A program made the position numbers and the translations under genes. The notes beneath the pieces were generated by a model that did no database searches, was not told the DNA's origin, and saw nothing but the letters and a program-made list of their open reading frames with translations. From Eledone cirrhosa (taxonomy: Eukaryota), in contig OZ024741.1 in NCBI GenBank assembly GCA_964016885.1, positions 276,148,001 to 276,212,000 on the forward strand: a stretch of 64,000 nucleotides of DNA. The letters run 5' to 3'. This document shows, piece by piece, positions 1 to 64,000 of the stretch (within the stretch, counting starts at the first letter, position 1; every line of letters starts with the position of its first letter).

Positions 1-3000
1 AGAGAAATAGGGGTGTGTAGAGTGGAGGCAGAGAAATAGGGGTGTGTAGAGTGATGATAGAGAAATAGGGGTGTGTAGAGTGATGATAGAGAAATAGGGG
101 TGTGTAGAGTGATGATAGAGAAATAGGGGTGTGTAGAGTGGAGGCAGAGAAATAGGGGTGTGTAGAGTGATGATAGAGAAATAGGGGTGTGTAGAGTGAT
201 GATAGAGAAATAGGGGTGTGTAGAGTGATGATAGAGAAATAGGGGTGTGTAGAGTGGGGGCAGAGAAATAGGGGTGTGTAGAGTGGGGGCAGAGAAATAG
301 GGGTGTGTAGAGTGATGATAGAGAAATAGGGGTGTGTAGAGTGATGATAGAGAAATAGGGGTGTGTAGAGTGGGGGCAGAGAAATAGGGGTGTGTAGAGT
401 GATGATAGAGAAATAGGGGTGTGTAGAGTGATGATAGAGAAATAGGGGTGTGTAGAGTGATGATAGAGAAATAGGGGTGTGTAGAGTGATGATAGAGAAA
501 TAGGGGTGTGTAGAGTGATGATAGAGAAATAGGGGTGTGTAGAGTGATGATAGAGAAATAGGGGTGTGTAGAGTGATGATAGAGAAATAGGGGTGTGTAG
601 AGTGATGATAGAGAAATAGGGGTGTGTAGAGTGATGATAGAGAAATAGGGGTGTGTAGAGTGATGATAGAGAAATAGGGGTGTGTAGAGTGGGGGCAGAG
701 AAATAGGGGTGTGTAGAGTGGGGGCAGAGAAATAGGGGTGTGTAGAGTGATGATAGAGAAATAGGGGTGTGTAGAGTGATGATAGAGAAATAGGGGTGTG
801 TAGAGTGGGGGCAGAGAAATAGGGGTGTGTAGAGTGATGATAGAGAAATAGGGGTGTGTAGAGTGATGATAGAGAAATAGGGGTGTGTAGAGTGGGGGCA
901 GAGAAATAGGGGTGTGTAGAGTGATGATAGAGAAATAGGGGTGTGTAGAGTGATGATAGAGAAATAGGGGTGTGTAGAGTGATGATAGAGAAATAGGGGT
1001 GTGTAGAGTGATGATAGAGAAATAGGGGTGTGTAGAGTGGGGGCAGAGAAATAGGGGTGTGTAGAGTGGGGGCAGAGAAATAGGGGTGTGTAGAGTGATG
1101 ATAGAGAAATAGGGGTGTGTAGAGTGATGATAGAGAAATAGGGGTGTGTAGTGGGGGCAGAGAAATAGGGGTGTGTAGAGTGATGATAGAGAAATAGGGG
1201 TGTGTAGAGTGATGATAGAGAAATAGGGGTGTGTAGAGTGATGATAGAGAAATAGGGGTGTGTAGAGTGATGATAGAGAAATAGGGGTGTGTAGAGTGAT
1301 GATAGAGAAATAGGGGTGTGTAGAGTGATGATAGAGAAATAGGGGTGTGTAGAGTGATGATAGAGAAATAGGGGTGTATAGAGTGGGGGCAGAGAAATAG
1401 GGGTGTGTAGAGTGATGATAGAGAAATAGGGGTGTGTAGAGTGATGATAGAGAAATAGGGGTGTGTAGAGTGATGATAGAGAAATAGGGGTGTGTAGAGT
1501 GGGGGCAGAGAAATAGGGGTGTGTAGAGTGATGATAGAGAAATAGGGGTATGTAGAGTGATGATAGAGAAATAGGGGTGTGTAGAGTGATGATAGAGAAA
1601 TAGGGGTGTGTAGAGTGATGATAGAGAAATAGGGGTGTGTAGAGTGATGATAGAGAAATAGGGGTGTGTAGAGTGGGGGCAGAGAAATAGGGGTGTGTAG
1701 AGTGGGGGCAGAGAAATAGGGGTGTGTAGAGTGATGATAGAGAAATAGGGGTGTGTAGAGTGGGGGCAGAGAAATAGGGGTGCGTAGAGTGATGATAGAG
1801 AAATAGGGGTGTGTAGAGTGATGATAGAGAAATAGGGGTGTGTAGAGTGATGATAGAGAAATAGGGGTGTGTAGAGTGATGATAGAGAAATAGGGGTGTG
1901 TAGAGTGATGATAGAGAAATAGGGGTGTGTAGAGTGGGGGCAGAGAAATAGGGGTGTGTAGAGTGATGATAGAGAAATAGGGGTGTGTAGAGTGATGATA
2001 GAGAAATAGGGGTGTGTAGAGTGGGGGCAGAGAAATAGGGGTGTGTAGAGTGATGATAGAGAAATAGGGGTGTGTAGAGTGATGATAGAGAAATAGGGGT
2101 GTGTAGAGTGATGATAGAGAAATAGGGGTGTGTAGAGTGATGATAGAGAAATAGGGGTGTGTAGAGTGGGGGCAGAGAAATAGGGGTGTGTAGAGTGATG
2201 ATAGAGAAATAGGGGTGTGTAGAGTGATGATAGAGAAATAGGGGTGTGTAGAGTGATGATAGAGAAATAGGGGTGTGTAGAGTGGGGGCAGAGAAATAGG
2301 GGTGTGTAGAGTGATGATAGAGAAATAGGGGTGTGTAGAGTGATGATAGAGAAATAGGGGTGTGTAGAGTGATGATAGAGAAATAGGGGTGTGTAGAGTG
2401 ATGATAGAGAAATAGGGGTGTGTAGAGTGATGATAGAGAAATAGGGGTGTGTAGAGTGATGATAGAGAAATAGGGGTGTGTAGAGTGATGATAGAGAAAT
2501 AGGGGTGTGTAGAGTGATGATAGAGAAATAGGGGTGTGTAGAGTGGGGGCAGAGAAATAGGGGTGTGTAGAGTGGGGGCAGAGAAATAGGGGTGTGTAGA
2601 GTGATGATAGAGAAATAGGGGTGTGTAGAGTGATGATAGAGAAATAGGGGTGTGTAGAGTGATGATAGAGAAATAGGGGTGTGTAGAGTGGGGGCAGAGA
2701 AATAGGGGTGTGTAGAGTGATGATAGAGAAATAGGGGTGTGTAGAGTGGGGGCAGAGAAATAGGGGTGTGTAGAGTGGGGGCAGAGAAATAGGGGTGTGT
2801 AGAGTGATGATAGAGAAATAGGGGTGTGTAGAGTGATGATAGAGAAATAGGGGTGTGTAGAGTGATGATAGAGAAATAGGGGTGTGTAGAGTGATGATAG
2901 AGAAATAGGGGTGTGTAGAGTGATGATAGAGAAATAGGGGTGTGTAGAGTGATGATAGAGAAATAGGGGTGTGTAGAGTGGTGGCAGAGAAATAGGGGTG

Positions 3001-4386
3001 TGTAGAGTGATGATAGAGGAATAGGGGTGTGTAGAGTGATGATAGAGAAATAAGGGTGTGTAGAGTGATGATAGAGAAATAGGGGTGTGTAGAGTGATGA
3101 TAGAGAAATAGGGGTGTGTAGAGTGGGGGCAGAGAAATAGGGGTGTGTAGAGTGGGGGCAGAGAAATAGGGGTGTGTAGAGTGATGATAGAGAAATAGGG
3201 GTGTGTAGAGTGATGATAGAGAAATAGGGGTGTGTAGAGTGATGATAGAGAAATAGGGGTGTGTAGAGTGGGGGCAGAGAAATAGGGGTGTGTAGAGTGA
3301 TGATAGAGAAATAGGGGTGTGTAGAGTGGGGACAGAGAAATAGGGGTGTGTAGAGTGGGGGCAGAGAAATAGGGGTGTGTAGAGTGATGATAGAGAAATA
3401 GGGGTGTGTAGAGTGGGGGCAGAGAAATAGGGGTGTGTAGAGTGATGATAGAGAAATAGGGGTGTGTAGAGTGATGATAGAGAAATAGGGGTGTGTAGAG
3501 TGGGGTCAGAGAAATAGGGGTGTGTAGAGTGATGATAGAGAAATAGGGGTGTGTAGAGTGATGATAGAGAAATAGGGGTGTGTAGAGTGATGATAGAGAA
3601 ATAGGGGTATGTAGAGTGATGATAGAGAAATAGGGGTGTGTAGAGTGATGATAGAGAAATAGGGGTGTGTAGAGTGGGGGCAGAGAAATAGGGGTGTGTA
3701 GAGTGATGATAGAGAAATAGGGGTGTGTAGAGTGATGATAGAGAAATAGGGGTGTGTAGAGTGGGGGCAGAGAAATAGGGGTGTGTAGAGTGGGGGCAGA
3801 GAAATAGGGGTGTGTAGAGTGATGATAGAGAAATAGGGGTGTGTAGAGTGATGATAGAGAAATAGGGGTGTGTAGAGTGATGATAGAGAAATAGGGGTGT
3901 GTAGAGTGGGGGCAGAGAAATAGGGGTGTGTAGAGTGGGGGCAGAGAAATAGGGGTGTGTAGAGTGATGATAGAGAAATAGGGGTGTGTAGAGTGATGAT
4001 AGAGAAATAGGGGTGTGTAGAGTGATGATAGAGAAATAGGGGTGTGTAGAGTGGGGGCAGAGAAATAGGGGTGTGTAGAGTGATGATAGAGAAATAGGGG
4101 TGTGTAGAGTGATGATAGAGAAATAGGGGTGTGTAGAGTGGGGGCAGAGAAATAGGGGTGTGTAGAGTGGGGGCAGAGAAATAGGGGTGTGTAGAGTGGG
4201 GGCAGAGAAATAGGGGTGTGTAGAGTGGGGGCAGAGAAATAGGGGTGTGTAGAGTGATGATAGAGAAATAGGGGTGTGTAGAGTGATGATAGAGAAATAG
4301 GGGTGTGTAGAGTGGAGGCAGAGAAATAGGGGTGTGTAGAGTGATGATAGAGAAATAGGGGTGTGTAGAGTGGAGGCAGAGAAATA
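1..4386. repeat. 29-bp G-rich minisatellite (~150 units, runs off window start), inside a CutC intron
   Basis: Unit AGAGAAATAGGGGTGTGTAGAGTG followed by ATGAT or GGGGC, repeated head to tail. Confidence 0.98.
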
Positions 4387-11690: not shown

Positions 11691-11984
11691 CTAAAAATAG
11701 TTAACAAAATTAGAAACAAAGTGCATCAACTATTATTTTAGTCATTTACATTGGCATACACACATTTCAAATTTTCCTACTGTTTCTTAAGTCAACCACT
11801 TGCTTTGCACTTCTAACTACAACTTAAAATAAGCAGGATTAGAGGCCAGTGGATCTTTAATGTAGTGGTAAACAGAGGCTTAAACAGACAGAATTGGTGA
11901 CTCTTTAGATTGCAGGCCCATTGCCAGTTTTTATGGCATGAAATGGAGACTGCAAAAAGCCTAAACATGTCCTTGGTTAACCCG

Positions 11985-13008
11985 TGCAAAGGACAATGTG
12001 GTATGGTTCTTTTTTTGTTCCTCTCAAAATATTGCTACCCTAATGTCTCTATACGAATGCCCAAGTATTTGTGTTCGGATAAAGGGTGCTAGATTGAAGC
12101 CGTTCAATGTGAGAGTCAGACTCCACCAAGGATGTGTACTATCACCTCTCCTGTTCATTATTTACATGAACAGGATTGACATGTGCAGTCAGGTTGGAGT
12201 AGGTATCACGACTGACAGGTGTAAAACCAGTTGGGTGAAAATAGCAGCTGACATGGTGTTATTTAACTCAACAGAAGACGATCTCCGACTTGCACTTGAT
12301 AGGTTTGCTGCTGAGTACTGCATGGCTGGAATGAAAATCAGTGCTGCAAAATCTAAGACACTCGTCCGTTCAAGGAAGCCTGTGCAGTGCACTCTACATG
12401 TGAATGAAATTCCACTGAAGCTGGTGGAGAAGTTCAAGTATCTTGGAGACGTATTCACAAGTGATGGAAGGCAGGACGCTGAATTAAATGCAAAAATAAC
12501 AGGAGCTGGTGCAGTAATGCACCAGCTTCAGCACTCGGCAATCATTAGAGGGGGGGGGGGTGTAAAAGCTTAACTCGCTATCTTTAATTCCATATTCATG
12601 CCAACCCTTACCTATAGTCATGAATCTTGGGTAATGACCGAAAGAATATGAACATGAATATAAGCAGCCAAAATGGGGTTCCTCCAAAGGGTCTTTGGGG
12701 TAATGTTACTCGATTGAGTGTATAGATCAGAGAGTCACTCCAAGTAGAGCCGCTACTTCTCCAAATTAAGAGATCACAGCTCTGATAGTATGGTTAGAAT
12801 GTCTCAGAAACAGATTTTATGGGCAAAACCAACCGGCAGGAGACACAGGGGTAGACCCCAAGCAAGATGGTTGGATAACATTCATGAGCTTGGATGGTCT
12901 CGTTTGGGGACCAGCCAGATCAGTTGAAGATGATTGCTTCTGACAGGGCCTGTGAAAGGAGTGTTTGAGGACTCTGTCCCCACAACGCCCTCAGGAATAA
13001 GTGGGCGA
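11985..13008 (+). mobile_element. Second RTE-type (Expander/Rex3-like) LINE, RT fragment; another 3' piece at 10495-10720
   Basis: LHQGCVLSPLLFIIYM, AADMVLF, GMKISAAKSK, FKYLG; stops and frameshifts downstream. Confidence 0.88.
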
Positions 13009-13199: not shown

Positions 13200-14345
13200 A
13201 TCATCATCATCACCGTTTTACATGTTGTTCCGCGCTAGCATGGGTTAGACGGGTTGTCCTGTTGTGGGTAGTATCCAGTCGGCTGACCTTGTCTTGCTCA
13301 TACGGGAACTGATTCTGGCTTGATTTCTACAGCTGGATGCCCTTCCTAACACCAACCTCATTTACAGTGAGTGCTGGGTGCTTTTTTTCCGTGGCGCCTA
13401 CACGTCCACTTTACAGTGTGGGCTGGGTGCTTTTTTGCCATGGCACCTCCACGGCCACTTTGCAGTGTGGGGGCATATTGTCTATATGCTTCAGCTTCAG
13501 CTTGTTCCTGTGTGATGCCAGAGGTCACGATCGTGTGTCATTGCCCTTGAGAGGTGCAATTGGGTAAGGTCGGCCTTTATCATTTCATCCCAGGTCTTCT
13601 TGGGTCTCCCCACTCCGCGGCTTCCATCAACTTCTAGTGCTCTGCACCTTTTTATGCAGCTGTCATCCTTCATACGCATCACATGTCTATACCAACATAA
13701 CCTCCTCTCCTGCACACAGCATTTGATTCCTCTTATGCTCAGTCTCTCTCTCAATTCGTTTATGCTTTGCCGTTCGAGTATATTACTATTACACATCCAT
13801 TGGAGCATGCAAGCTTCATTTCTTTCTAATCTACGCAAGTCTTCTACAGACAGCACCCAGGTCTCACTACCATGTAACATTGTTGTTCGTATACACTCAT
13901 TATACAGTCTGCCTTTCATTTTGAGGGAAAAGCCTTTTGCAGCTAGCAGTGGCTCCCTGAACTTCTTCCATCCTGTTCTTACCCCAGTTATTGTACTTTC
14001 CGAACACTCACCTCCGCTGCTAATTCAGGCACCTAGATAGCAGAAGCTGTCTACTGTTTCTACAGAGGCCGCCCAGAGTTTGGTGGTGCTTATTTCCTAT
14101 GGTCGTTTGCTGCTTGCTGTCCCAGCACAGCTGCTACATGTAAAGCCTACATTCTTAGTTAAACTTCCTGAGATCCCACTACATCTCTTGTGTACCCATT
14201 GTTTGCATATGGGGCAGAGAATAGAGTTCCTACCTACACCTTTCCTATATATTGAGCAAGGCCATTTCCCTGAAGGGATCCGGATTCTGTTTTCTCATCT
14301 ACTCACAAAAACCTTAGTCTTTGTCAGGTTGATTTTGAGACTCTT
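13200..14345 (-). mobile_element. RTE-clade LINE, 5'-truncated, with PHD-like insert and repeated 3' UTR
   Basis: ORF 13497-13919 (MLHGSETW...GRPKKTW); (CAT)n tail at 13200; same family as 57975-59250 and 62870-63970. Confidence 0.92.
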
Positions 14346-18317: not shown

Positions 18318-18354
<37 letters not shown>

Positions 18355-18485
18355 GTGAGGTTTTTTTTACAAAATGAAAAATAACCGAGGTGTCCTACAC
18401 GAGTGAAAGTATAAAGAAAAAGAGATGAAATCGAAAATGCAACTGGAGTCTTATTTTTTTTAAAAATATATATATTTATTTAGTT

Positions 18486-18523
18486 CCTTTACCGGTTTCG
18501 CAGTTCTTCTGCTTTTCAAAAGG
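18486..18523 (-). ncRNA. Minimal type I hammerhead ribozyme, U3:A8 core variant
   Basis: CCTT-TTGAAAA-GCAG aagaa CTGC-GAAA-CCGG-TA-AAGG. Confidence 0.65.
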
Positions 18524-18575
18524 TGAGTTGAGATGGAGGGTCTGGGGTTTTTCTCAAACCCTCCATCTCAACTCA

Positions 18576-18613
18576 CCTTTTGAAAAGTAGAAGAACTGCG
18601 AAACCGGTAAAGG
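18576..18613 (+). ncRNA. Minimal type I hammerhead ribozyme, U3:A8 core variant
   Basis: CCTT-TTGAAAA-GTAG aagaa CTGC-GAAA-CCGG-TA-AAGG. Confidence 0.65.
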
Positions 18614-18745
18614 AACCAAATAAATATATATATTTTTAAAAAAAATAAGACTCCAGTTGCATTTTCGATTTCATCTCTTTTTCTTATATATATATATATA
18701 TATACGATATTAAACAAATGGAAACTATATTTATAAAACCATATT

Positions 18746-18811: not shown

Positions 18812-18939
18812 CAATATATAAACAGTTTTATAAATAATTTTGACATACCATATTATAAGCGACCATTAAAATAGGAACCTTTGCATATATATATATATAT
18901 TCCTGGTGATTTCTCAAGAATGAAACAGTTCTAGTCTAT

Positions 18940-19198
18940 ATATTACACACACAGAAATGTATATATATTTCTGTGTGTGTATATATATATATATTACACA
19001 CACAGAAATGTATATATATTTCTGTGTGTATATATATATATTTCTGTGTGTGTATATATATATATATTACACACACAAAAATGTATATATATTTCTGTGT
19101 GTATATATATATATATTACACACACAGAAATGTATATATATTTCTGTGTGTGTATATATATATATATATTACACACACAGAAATGTATATATATTTCT
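18940..19198. repeat. AT-rich minisatellite (ATTACACACACAGAAATGTATATATATTTCTGTGTG...) with internally palindromic units
   Basis: About 5 units, each containing CACACAGAAAT...ATTTCTGTGTG. Confidence 0.85.
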
Positions 19199-21079: not shown

Positions 21080-22445
21080 CATAATGCTGAACAGGAATAC
21101 AAACTGCATGAATCATATCAATAGATAAAAGCTCAATAAATCATGCAACCATCTCAAGCAGGTGACAAAAAAAGGCGGTGCTTGAATTTGAACAGCACAT
21201 AACAACTAGCCCTGACAGTAAAGTGTTCTGGAAATATGAACATTCACAGCAGAGACCTCACTCTCCAGTTGGTCCTGTTCACAATCCCCACACAAGCCAG
21301 ATTACTGAAGATCCCAAAGTATGTGCAGAACTCGTTGCTGAATGCTATGCAGGCATTTTTACTGTTGAAAACCAAAACGTACCATCTCCATCACCTCTGA
21401 CATCAAATTTTATAACAACTATGGAATTTACACCTGCAATGCTGCGACATCACCTTAAGAATGAGCGCAAGTATGCCTCTCCTGGATGGTGTTACATACC
21501 ACCTTCTCAAAAGTGGTGGGTACTTTCTTCTGCACCAGCTTTCACTCTTCTTTCAATTCTGTCTAAACAACATTGCTATTCCAGAGCAGTGGAAAACTAC
21601 CAATGTCATTCCTCTGTTCAAAAAGGGTGACCACCCGTCGCCTGTCAACTATTGTCCAGTCAGTCTTACTAGCTACATCACCAAACTAATGTAATACTGT
21701 GTCAGAGAAACACTCTGGAACTTCTACATCAAGCTGTAACTTGAGCTAAAAAGGACAGATCCTGAACACTATAGATCTTATCAGCAAACAGACCTGGACA
21801 CAATGTAACAATGGATCATGGACTGGCAACTCAAGCTGGCTGTGGACAAGAGTACCACCATACATTTGGGGAGGAAAAATCCAGTATCCACATACTCCCT
21901 CCACAAAACTAATCTCAAGAAGTCTTCTTGTGAATGTGACCTGGGCATTACTGTCAGCAACGATTTGCGTTGGACAAAGTACATCTCTGAAATTGTCAAG
22001 AAGGCTGAGGGTGTCTTGGCATCACTCATCAAGACCTTTGTCAGCTGCTCTCCAGCTATCTATTTAAAGCTGTATATAGCTATGGTGCGGCCACACTTAG
22101 AATTTGCATCACCAATCTGGAACCCCTATCTTGTTCAGAACATTGACCGCCTGGAAACTGTTCAGAGATGTGCAACCAAGAGAATACCCTCCATCAGGCA
22201 TCTACCATACTCTGCACGCCTTGCTTCCCTAGGCATGGATACATTGAAGCTCGGATGTCTGGCAACTGACTTGTTAAACACCCACAAAATTATTAACCAT
22301 CTTGCCAACAAAAACCCTGAGCACCTTTCGAATTCCATGAGTCTAACACATGTGGGCATGCCTACAAAGACAGAAAACAGTACAGCTTCCATGACTTCTG
22401 GAAACATTTTTTCACTCTCAGAGTTACTGAAGCATGGAACAAATA
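21080..22445 (+). mobile_element. CR1/L2-like LINE with internal deletion
   Basis: IPEQWKTTNVIPLFKKGD..NYCPVSLTS, DLGITVSNDLRW, VRPHLEFASPIWNPY, LETVQRCATKRI. Confidence 0.93.
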
Positions 22446-22450
22446 ATCTC

Positions 22451-22485
<35 letters not shown>

Positions 22486-22560
22486 ATATGTGGTTGACGG
22501 CTGAGAGAAAGGAGTACACAATACCGAAGTATAGTTTTAATATTCATTTGAGGGTAAATA

Positions 22561-57982: not shown

Positions 57983-59250
57983 TCATCATCATTTAACGTC
58001 CATCTTCCACGCTTGCATGGGTTTGGACGGGAATTTTCCCACTTGAGACAAGATTGGTTGTCTTGCTCGTATGGCCCTGTGGTGGGTTTTCTACGGCTGG
58101 ATGCCCTTCCTAACACCAACCATGTTTACAGTGTGGACTGGGAGGTTTTTACCGTGTTACCTACACGGCCACATTACAGCGTGGACTGTGTGTTTTTTTG
58201 TCATGACACCTACACGACCTCATTTGTTTCGGACTGGATGTTGTGGTACCAACATAACTTTACATTGAAAGGGGTGGTGTGGATGGGGTGGGGGTAGTGG
58301 GACGGGGGTGTATTTTTGTTAAAGGTGCCTACTGACTGTAGTAGGTTTCACTTTGTACTTAGGTAAGGCGGGTCTTCTGTATTACTGTGTATCGCCAAAG
58401 ATCTCGGTCCAGTGACATTGTCGTGTGAGGTCGGAATTTAGCAAGTCGTCCCAGGTTTTTCTGGGTCTGCCTACTCCGTGGCTACCGTCTATTTTTATTG
58501 CCCTGCACTTTTTATACAGCTGTCGTCTTTCATGCTCATCACGTGACCGTACCAACGTAGTCTTCTCTCGAGTAAACAGCATCTGATCGCTCTTATTCCT
58601 AGTTTCTCCCTTAGTTCGTTTATGCTTTGCCGTTCACGTATATTACTATTACACATCCAGCGGAGCATGCAAGCTTCGTTCCTCTCCAGTCTGCATATAT
58701 CCTCTGCACACAATGCCCAGGTCTCACTGCCATGCAACATTGCTGTTTGTATACAGGCATCATACAGCCTGCCTTTCATTTTTAGTGAGAACCCTTTAGC
58801 AGCCAATAATGGTATAAGCTCTCTGAACTTTTTCCATCCCGTTCTGACTCTAGCTACTGTACTTTCGGAGCACCCTCCACCACTGCTGATTTTGTCACCC
58901 AGGTAACGGAAGGTGTTCACTATTTCTATAGAACCATCTGTGCAATGGAATGAGCTAGTATTCTGTGGGCATTTGCTACTACTTATTGCACCAGAGCACC
59001 GGCCACATATAAAATCTATATTCTTAGTTAGCTTACCTGTGATACCACTACATCTTTTATGCACCCATACTTTGCATTTGGGACATAAAATGGAGTTTGT
59101 GCCTACTCCTTTCCTACACACTGAGCATGGCCATTTCCCAGATGGGACTGGTGCCCTATTTTCCTTCCTACAAACTAGAACTTTAGTCTTAGACAGGTTA
59201 ATTTTAAGGCCTTTTGATTCTAGGCCATGCTTCCATATTTGGAATTTCTT
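57975..59250 (-). mobile_element. RTE-clade LINE, 5'-truncated, PHD-like finger within the RT C-terminal region
   Basis: ORF 58495-59292: GLKINLSKTKVL...KWPCSVC...CPKC..WVHKRC...CGRC...FRYLG...MLHGSETW...RLRWYGHV. Confidence 0.95.
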
Positions 59251-59329
59251 CTCTATATATACATATATACACATACACACATATGCTAGCATGGAAGATG
59301 GACATTAAACGATGATGATGATGGTGATA

Positions 59330-62689: not shown

Positions 62690-62853
62690 GGGACCCCAGT
62701 CCCTATCATCTCATTTCTACAGCTGAGTAAACTGGAGCAATGTGAAATAAAGTGTCTTGCTCAAGGAAACAACACATCACCCGGTCTGAGAATTGAACTC
62801 ACAACCTTTCGATTGCGAGTCCAATGCTCTAACCACTAAGCCACGTGCCTCCA
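62690..62853 (-). mobile_element. tRNA-derived SINE, next to an RTE 3' UTR fragment (62515-62682)
   Basis: GGCACGTGGCTTAGTGGTTAGAGC...GAGTTCAATTC...CCTTGAGCAAGACACTT. Confidence 0.82.
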
Positions 62854-62869
62854 TACATATATATATATA

Positions 62870-63972
62870 TCATCATCATCATCATCATCACCGTTTTACG
62901 TCCGTTCTTCCACGCTAGCATGGGTTAGACGGGTTGTCCTGTTGTGGGCAGTGTCTGGTCGGCTGACCATGCCTTGCTCATACAGGAACTGATCTGGCTT
63001 GATTTCTACAGCTGGATGCCCTTCCTAACACCAAGCTCATTTACAGTGAGTGCTGGGTGCTTTTTCGTGGCGCCTACACGTCCACTTTACAGTGTGGGCT
63101 GGGTGCTTTTTTGCCGTGGCACCTCCACGGCCACCTTGCGGTGGAGGGGGGGGGGGATATTGTTTATATGCTTCAGCATGTACCCATGGGAGGTCGGGTA
63201 CCCTGTATTACTGCGTGACGCCAGAAGTCACGGTCGTGTGTCATTGACTTTGAGAGGTGTAGTTGGGTAAGGTCGGCTTTTATCACCTCATCCCAAGTCA
63301 TCTTGGGTCTCCCCACTCCGCGGTTTCCATCAACTTCTAGTGCTCTGCACCTTTTTATGCAGCTGTCATCCTTCATACGCATCACATGTCCATACCAGCG
63401 TAACCGCCTCTCCTGCACGCAGCATTTGATTCCTCTTATGCTCAGTCTCTCTCTCAATTCCTTTATGCTTTGTCGTTCACGTATATTACTGTTACACATC
63501 CATCGGAGCATGCAGGCTTCGTTTCTCTCTAATCTACGTAAGTCTTCCACCTTCAGCGCCCAGGTCTCACTACCATGCAACATCGCTGTTCGGATACACG
63601 CATCATACAGTCTGCCTTTCATTCTGAGGGAGAAGCCTTTTGCAGCTAGCAGTGGTAGTAGTTCCCTAAACTTCTTCCATCCCGTTCTTACCCTAGTTAT
63701 TGTACTTTCTGAGCACCCACCTCCGTTGCTAATTCGGTCACCTAGGTAGCAGAAGCTGTCTACTGTTTCTACAGGGCCCTCCCAGAGATTGGTGGTACTT
63801 GTTTCCTGTGGCTGTTTGCTTGCTGTTTCAGCACAGCTGCTGCATGTGAATCCTACATTCTTAATTAAGCTTCCTGAGATCCCGCTACATCTCTTGTGTA
63901 CCCATTGTTTGCATTTGGGGCAGAGAATGGAGTTTCTACCTACACCTTTCCTACATACTGAGCAAGGCCATA
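62870..63972 (-). mobile_element. RTE-clade LINE, 5'-truncated, well preserved
   Basis: ORF 63173-63622, PHD-like segment at 63830-63970, repeated 3' UTR, (CAT)n tail. Confidence 0.95.
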
Positions 63973-64000
63973 TATATTAAAACCTACTACAGCCAGTAGG

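Follow-up and report, generated by a model that had tools for sequence, protein, structure and literature searches.

We found that an inverted repeat in the Eledone cirrhosa genome consists of two head-to-head pseudo-LTR copies of a Penelope-like retrotransposon (PLE) inserted in a TA microsatellite, and that it is an ordinary insertion. The window analyzed comprises 64,000 nt of contig OZ024741.1, from a genome of 3.0 Gb. The identity of the locus as a Penelope-like insertion is practically certain, while the whole explanation, in which one RNA was likely copied twice from two internal starts and each half of the resulting pseudo-LTR double insertion carries a predicted hammerhead ribozyme with a U3:A8 core, is given a probability of about 0.8. 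Positions in the element are numbered +n or −n from the hammerhead core nucleotide U3, and the cut is predicted between +29 and +30. The full insertion (18348-18685, 338 nt, inverted) lies inside (TA)n, and its parts are listed below in window coordinates.

18320..18347, no strand: (TA)n target, left flank, read from the sequence
18348..18413, − strand: 66-nt tail of the left copy, to the long 3′ end (~+173 from U3); the same end occurs in many copies
18414..18544, − strand: left arm, pseudo-LTR in sense on the − strand
18486..18523, − strand: predicted minimal type I hammerhead of the left arm (sequence and folding)
18523-18520/18489-18486, − strand: stem I of the left hammerhead
18519-18513, − strand: core U3 to A9 of the left hammerhead, with U3 at 18519
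18512-18509/18503-18500, − strand: stem II of the left hammerhead
18499-18496, − strand: GAAA of the left hammerhead
18496-18491, − strand: palindromic stem III of the left hammerhead
after 18490, − strand: predicted cut of the left hammerhead
18545..18554, − strand: junction, 10 more nt of the 5′ end of the left copy (start ~−35)
18555..18685, + strand: right arm, pseudo-LTR in sense on the + strand, to the short 3′ end (~+105)
18576..18613, + strand: second predicted hammerhead, in the right arm (sequence and folding)
18580-18586, + strand: core of the right hammerhead, with U3 at 18580
18587-18590/18596-18599, + strand: stem II of the right hammerhead, with one U-G pair
after 18609, + strand: predicted cut of the right hammerhead
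18686..18704, no strand: (TA)n target, right flank, read from the sequence

The palindrome reported in the first-pass annotation is real: its two inverted arms (131 nt each) are 98% complementary, with 3 mismatches and 10 nt between them, and each arm carries stem I, the core UUGAAAA, stem II, GAAA, ACCGGU, and a GUA site, as had been described. The extent given there, 18414..18685, is correct for the paired arms but not for the element, which reaches 18348 through the one-sided left tail. Likewise, the 10 nt between the arms are not a separate spacer but extra sequence of the left copy, left unpaired because the right copy starts only at ~−25. In the right hammerhead, a C-to-T change at 18588 produced the U-G pair in stem II. 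The arm sequence is a dispersed repeat in the E. cirrhosa genome, and the left copy is 96% identical over 215 nt to the 3′ pseudo-LTR of a full-length copy (L033).

The parent element is ~5 kb long and consists of a pseudo-LTR, an ORF, a 3′ region, and a second pseudo-LTR, with repeat units of 5,036 and 4,731 nt. In the ORF of one copy (L031), GIY-YIG scored above the Pfam cut-off, while RVT_1 was just below it (E = 1.8e-6, score 28.3 against a cut-off of 29.6). The same ORF contains the reverse transcriptase (RT) motifs DKG, GTAMG, and YLDD, and, at residue 361, a CxxxxCxxC linker between RT and GIY-YIG; Atlas matches gave RVT_1/HTH_animal/GIY-YIG at 0.97. The order of RT and then GIY-YIG, pseudo-LTRs derived from partial tandems, inverted 5′-truncated copies, and a one-sided tail are all features of PLEs of the EN+ type. 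This element carries the motif, and the earlier assignment of the ribozyme to the minimal hammerheads of Penelope type was borne out. Judging by its linker and (TA)n microsatellite targets, both of which are traits common to Neptune and Nematis, the parent appears to be a Neptune-type PLE. TATAAAA is present at −72, i.e., 30 nt before an A at −42, in 21 of the 23 copies that retain this region. At their 3′ side, pseudo-LTR copies end at two places, ~+105 and ~+173, each at TATA in the element.

ORF fragments of other GIY-YIG-type retroelements were seen at most 1.5 kb from copies at L013, L014, L016, L019, L027, and L030, which suggests common (TA)n targets. A short palindrome flanked by TA could also suggest a MITE, a type of DNA transposon bounded by long terminal inverted repeats. 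We consider the probability of this to be negligible: the ends are unequal, most copies are single-armed or show ragged, variable 5′ truncation, and the sequence forms the terminus of an element with RT and GIY-YIG, so that the parent already refutes this reading. A non-LTR retrozyme was also rejected, since the locus is an inverted pair and not a direct tandem array, and the unit is part of a coding element. A search of mainly open-access literature found no description of the family, of strict pairing of long and short 3′ ends, or of 5′ ends at a PLE hammerhead cut site.

A hammerhead descriptor matched once per strand in the 64-kb window and not at all in 100 shuffles. No hammerhead family was found among 83 Rfam matches in the window at E ≤ 1, a result that is expected for a minimal variant core and lowers only membership in Rfam families. 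The core contains N3-U4-G5-A6-N7-N8-A9, G12-A13-A14, A15.1-U16.1, H17, and a Watson-Crick 3:8 pair. In folding predictions, stems I and II formed when the 38-nt motif was folded alone. With two copies of the motif, a dimer with an intermolecular stem III was predicted at −18.9 kcal/mol, against −20.3 kcal/mol for the best structure. Within a single arm the hammerhead fold was disfavored (predicted stem I probability ≤0.01), and for the whole palindrome a hairpin of ~−220 kcal/mol was predicted, with all hammerhead stem probabilities at 0.0; the earlier statement that the full hairpin masks the motif thus agrees with the calculation. The idea that the long fold of an arm hides the motif as a designed switch was discarded, as this fold was no better than that of shuffled sequences (z = 0.39).

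The genome was searched with a motif pattern that left positions 3, 7, and 8 free, and with the reversed pattern as a control. The pattern returned 6,400 matches and the control none. This copy count, in which CTGANGA cores or single changes could have contradicted the first-pass annotation, came out in its favor: 6,374 of the 6,400 matches had U3:A8, none had C3:G8, and 26 had single mismatches. Position 3 was not T in 18 of the matches (10 C, 3 A, 5 G), and position 8 was not A in the other 8 (2 G, 3 C, 3 T). The U3:A8 variant is therefore present and fixed in the family, although it is not new, having been published for PLEs, including the UUGAAAA core (PMC4209133). As to the further claim of a selected variant family, fixation among 6,400 copies of one family is descent from one lineage and not proof of selection; sister families that keep U3:A8 support selection better. 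A T at stem II position 10.2, present in the top matches of a similarity search, proved to be an effect of the query, and was seen in 0 of the first 100 of 6,400 matches.

With a pattern that excluded the stem II of the main family, 3,897 matches were obtained (control 167), mostly from sister families. Two such PLE families with U3:A8 cores, B and C, were observed at L262-L280, some as inverted pairs. The RT of family B is 48-58% identical to that of the main family, and its pseudo-LTR has no blastn match to it. In the sister families U3, A8, GAAA, ACCGGU, and UA are kept, position 7 is A, U, or C, and stem II is built of other pairs. Stem I is 3-4 bp long in the main family and 1-2 bp long in families B and C. 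In a MAFFT alignment of 11 motifs, the count of two-sided pair changes was matched or exceeded in 126 of 500 shuffles, so that covariation did not emerge, in part because the register of stem II shifts between families. Because U3:A8 persists in sister families whose position 7 and stem II have changed, we consider it likely that the hammerhead motif has been kept by selection in the lineage.

We also found 14 C3:G8 matches with the same stem III. Two of these (L324 and L328) form a separate C3:G8 branch beside family C in a tree of 26 rows. The 14 matches do not establish an ancestral state: one (L333) is a junction artefact, two (L329 and L330) may be due to chance, and the 26-row tree did not place them. 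At L330, an inverted pair of an older subfamily (L330:1500 and L330:1862) has C3:G8 in one arm and U3:A8 in the other, where rearrangement is possible. Other hammerhead families, with C3:G8 cores and a different palindromic stem III, were seen near element copies at L059, L109, L111, L073, L031, L033, and L089.

The layout of the locus recurs throughout the family. From ordered match lists, mostly for the largest contigs (C1 and C2), which are not random and may include haplotype duplicates, 134 distinct inverted pairs were collected; 112 of them combined a long and a short 3′ end, 4 were short with short, 2 were long with long, and 16 had another or a cut-off end. Long and short ends were thus joined in 112 of 118 classifiable pairs (p = 1e-26 against 50%). 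In the least biased set, the combination was found in 16 of 20 pairs, with 1 short with short and 3 other. The arms of one pair diverged by 2.8% (n = 59), and arms of different pairs by 4.7%. A subfamily variant at +73 was carried by both arms of 23 pairs and by one arm only in 8 of 31; these one-arm variants must come from more than one template or from later mutation. The 5′ starts of arms fell at −45 to −35 in 28 of 57 cases and at −61 to −46 in 0 of 57, leaving a sharp edge at ~−43. Because TATAAAA lies 30 nt before the A at −42, this edge, 29-30 nt behind TATAAAA, would mark the transcript start at ~−42. The long arm reached further 5′ in 63 of 112 pairs, and the short arm in 40 of 112. 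The +105 end was also found on single copies. At one locus (L180), both arms begin exactly at +30, with a short palindromic insert between them.

The pairing of long with short ends, the similarity of the arms, the 5′ edge, and the published two-site RT starts together led us to infer twin priming on one RNA, a mechanism to which we assign even odds. Frangieh et al. 2024 showed for a PLE protein that it cleaves both strands and extends them, and that RT begins at two internal sites, which delimit the tail (PMC11167929). Inverted 5′-truncated copies with a one-sided tail are the common arrangement in PLEs, for which a bias toward (TA)n is also described (PMC8557442). Under twin priming, the element transcript would begin at ~−42, and the element enzyme would nick both strands of (TA)n. 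One 3′-OH would then prime at +105 and the other at +173 on the same RNA, the trailing polymerase would displace the first cDNA, and both cDNAs would stop at or near the 5′ end of the RNA before being joined by microhomology end joining. Short insertions such as this one would result when the 5′ pseudo-LTR of the mRNA is primed, and long copies of the element when the 3′ one is. In L1 twin priming, two primers from both target strands act on one RNA and generate a 5′ inversion whose pieces do not overlap; the Eledone arms differ in that the same stretch is copied twice, which would need strand displacement. The hammerhead of the parent would occur twice, in the 5′ leader (with the cut ~72 nt from the presumed cap, and the ORF start at ~+199) and at the 3′ end; its cleavage would be weak and would take place in a dimer or with assistance from the protein of the element.

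Alternatively, the palindrome could arise by self-priming after fold-back, either of the first cDNA or on an antisense template. Self-priming is favored for PLE palindromes and was proposed for rotifer Penelopes (PMC3846280), and it would explain variants common to both arms, head-to-head junctions with small nested inversions, and the more frequent 5′ advantage of the long arm. Yet fold-back cannot yield the pairs in which the short arm extends further 5′, unless later central deletions are common, and it leaves unexplained why the second arm stops at +105, a position at which single copies end as well; we therefore regard it as rather unlikely. An origin of the arms from two RNAs, held together by dimerization of the protein or of the hammerhead through its palindromic stem III, appears slightly less probable still. 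It would be consistent with a predicted dimer fold close in energy to the best structure and with the disagreement of some pairs at variant sites, but an extra rule would be needed for the near-constant combination of long and short ends, and the arms mostly share their variants, which two RNAs would explain only if one dominant source locus supplied both. Twin priming on one RNA remains the preferred reading, with self-priming and two RNAs as serious competitors.

With the help of a dimer or a protein, the motif is probably able to cleave. Copies ending at the cut site were not found as a class (48 matches, 3 of them joined directly to TATA). Contigs from four sequencing runs, compared with the pseudo-LTR, yielded no evidence on RNA ends. 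In the analysis of 5′ ends, flanks were fetched and only true truncations were counted. For starts at +28 to +36, 98 of the first 100 of 320 matches were used, and 24 were dropped as internal changes (n = 74). The top position was +30, with 15 of 74 starts against 7.8 expected (one-sided p = 0.009), while in the same set the excess at +28 to +30 relative to +31 to +36 was not significant (32 of 74, p = 0.24). A set for +21 to +32 was drawn from 72 of the first 100 of 655 matches, the rest being indel-like; in this set, which overlaps the previous one and is not independent of it, 33 of 50 starts were at +28 or later (p = 0.0004). Partner arms began at most 17 nt away in 21 of 54 cases when an arm started at +28 to +36, as opposed to 2 of 23 when it started at 0 to +24 (p = 0.013), and arms starting at +28 to +36 had a partner at +4 to +24 in only 1 of 54 cases. 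The 5′-end excess fits a minor template with its 5′ end at the cut site, and may be a weak hint of in vivo cleavage; polymerase pausing at stems or AT-rich microhomology could produce the same picture. It is possible, though doubtful, that the insertions record both twin priming at two fixed starts and a small share of templates cut in vivo, which would have left a second class of copies with both arms beginning at or just after the cut site.

The motif might no longer cleave and be retained instead for protein binding or promoter function, or be a relic. Its weak stem I, the competing folds predicted for it, and the missing class of copies ending at the cut site are in line with this, as is the report that a related hammerhead, described with a predicted dimer and protein assistance, is unnecessary for insertion in vitro (PMC11167929). 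Several observations nevertheless make such a loss of activity unlikely. Variation between families is confined to helix positions and the free position 7, while 3:8 stays Watson-Crick; natural U3:A8 hammerheads were described by Perreault et al. 2011, who cite in vitro activity (PMC3088659); and 5′ ends are weakly enriched at the cut site.

The first-pass annotation had further proposed a two-way arrangement, with one ribozyme on either transcript and cleavage dependent on co-transcriptional folding. One motif per strand, and a predicted hairpin that masks both, would suit a selected switch of this type. We consider it very improbable, since the masking arm is always made first, whichever strand is transcribed, the copy lacks the TATA box of the element, one arm already has the stem II change, and the layout is a routine insertion product of the family. 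No gene context was found either, only satellites and LINE-like fragments. Nor can the two motifs of the palindrome dimerize with each other, as they are on opposite strands. Since the complementary arm is transcribed first, each motif is on its own strand, and the TATA box falls upstream of the start of the copy, the hammerheads at 18348-18685 are predicted to be inactive passengers. A read-through transcript would form a hairpin of 131 bp, from which small RNAs might be made; Penelopes are silenced by small RNAs (PMC3846280).

Elsewhere in the window, two satellites were observed, at 1-4386 (29 nt × 151) and 33263-54776 (48 nt × 449), and an internally palindromic minisatellite of 49-51 nt occupies 18937-19198, where spurious microRNA matches fell below gathering scores. 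Open frames at 11965-12573, 13497-14024, 21809-22504, 58495-59304, and 63173-63976 are presumably LINE reverse-transcriptase-like. At 62782-62845 (− strand), a tRNA-like Rfam match above the gathering score was not called by ARAGORN and is possibly a SINE head.

Among known systems, Cercyon elements of Schistosoma mansoni, in which Cervera and de la Pena 2014 described a U3-A8 core with ~1,300 matches, come close to the Eledone family (PMC4209133). Both have a type I hammerhead in the pseudo-LTR with a short helix I, a palindromic helix III, and U3-A8, the core of Cercyon family 4 being UUGAAAA; opposite-strand pairs 100-700 bp apart and truncation of most copies are also reported (PMC4209133). 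The Eledone family differs from Cercyon in host and family, in a 4-bp helix II without an extra nucleotide after A9, in a stem III palindrome of 6 nt, and in its ~6,400 near-identical copies. In the accessible part of the supplement to that paper, no cephalopod entry was found (PMC4209133). Since the U3:A8 core and opposite-strand PLE pairs were already in print (PMC4209133), the locus itself is ordinary. Neptune, as described by Craig et al. 2021, shares with the Eledone element the RT, a CX2-5CxxC linker, a C-terminal GIY-YIG, and partial tandems, as well as inverted 5′-truncated copies with a tail at one end and (TA)n targets; the Eledone tail is ~66 nt long, against 30-40 nt in Neptune, and the Eledone ORF has a long N-terminal extension (PMC8557442). 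A TATA box upstream of the presumed start distinguishes the Eledone family from Drosophila Penelope, whose internal promoter is without TATA (PMC2377424). Poseidon PAc of the green anole resembles it in two RT starts that bound the tail, AT-rich targets, and a hammerhead near the ORF start; the accessible account of PAc gives a C3:G8 core, starts that did not differ between strands, and a cut site at which RNA ends were not seen (PMC11167929). Unlike in PAc, the two ends of the Eledone family are almost always paired one each, and both are at TATA in the element.

Non-LTR retrozymes, which are PLE-derived and non-coding, also have a type I hammerhead (PMC7229834; bioRxiv 10.64898/2026.07.22.740005). 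They form direct tandem arrays, whereas at the Eledone locus two truncated copies of a coding element stand in inverted orientation. The same genome (G000) also contains a 310-nt tandem family that resembles retrozymes and has a C3:G8 hammerhead; it forms head-to-head inverted arrays in (TA)n, e.g., at L118-L146 (C1:1.24 Mb and 5.39 Mb). A pattern with 19,084 matches (control 109) hit this family in 99 of the first 100. In its stem II, U faces U at the first position, and the family showed no homology to the Eledone PLE among the matches listed.

As the first-pass annotation had stated, searches for CUGANGA miss the variant core, and annotators who rely on them or on Rfam will overlook such hammerheads; in this genome, ~10,000 candidates escape both. 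With thousands of young, sharp-ended copies, a single genome becomes a test bed for the formation of PLE inverted repeats and for hammerhead cutting in vivo. The sister copies likely record how PLEs are copied into DNA. If a minor class of cut templates is indeed among them, they would constitute genomic evidence of germ-line cleavage by a Penelope hammerhead, which the anole RNA-seq, in the accessible account of that work, did not show (PMC11167929).
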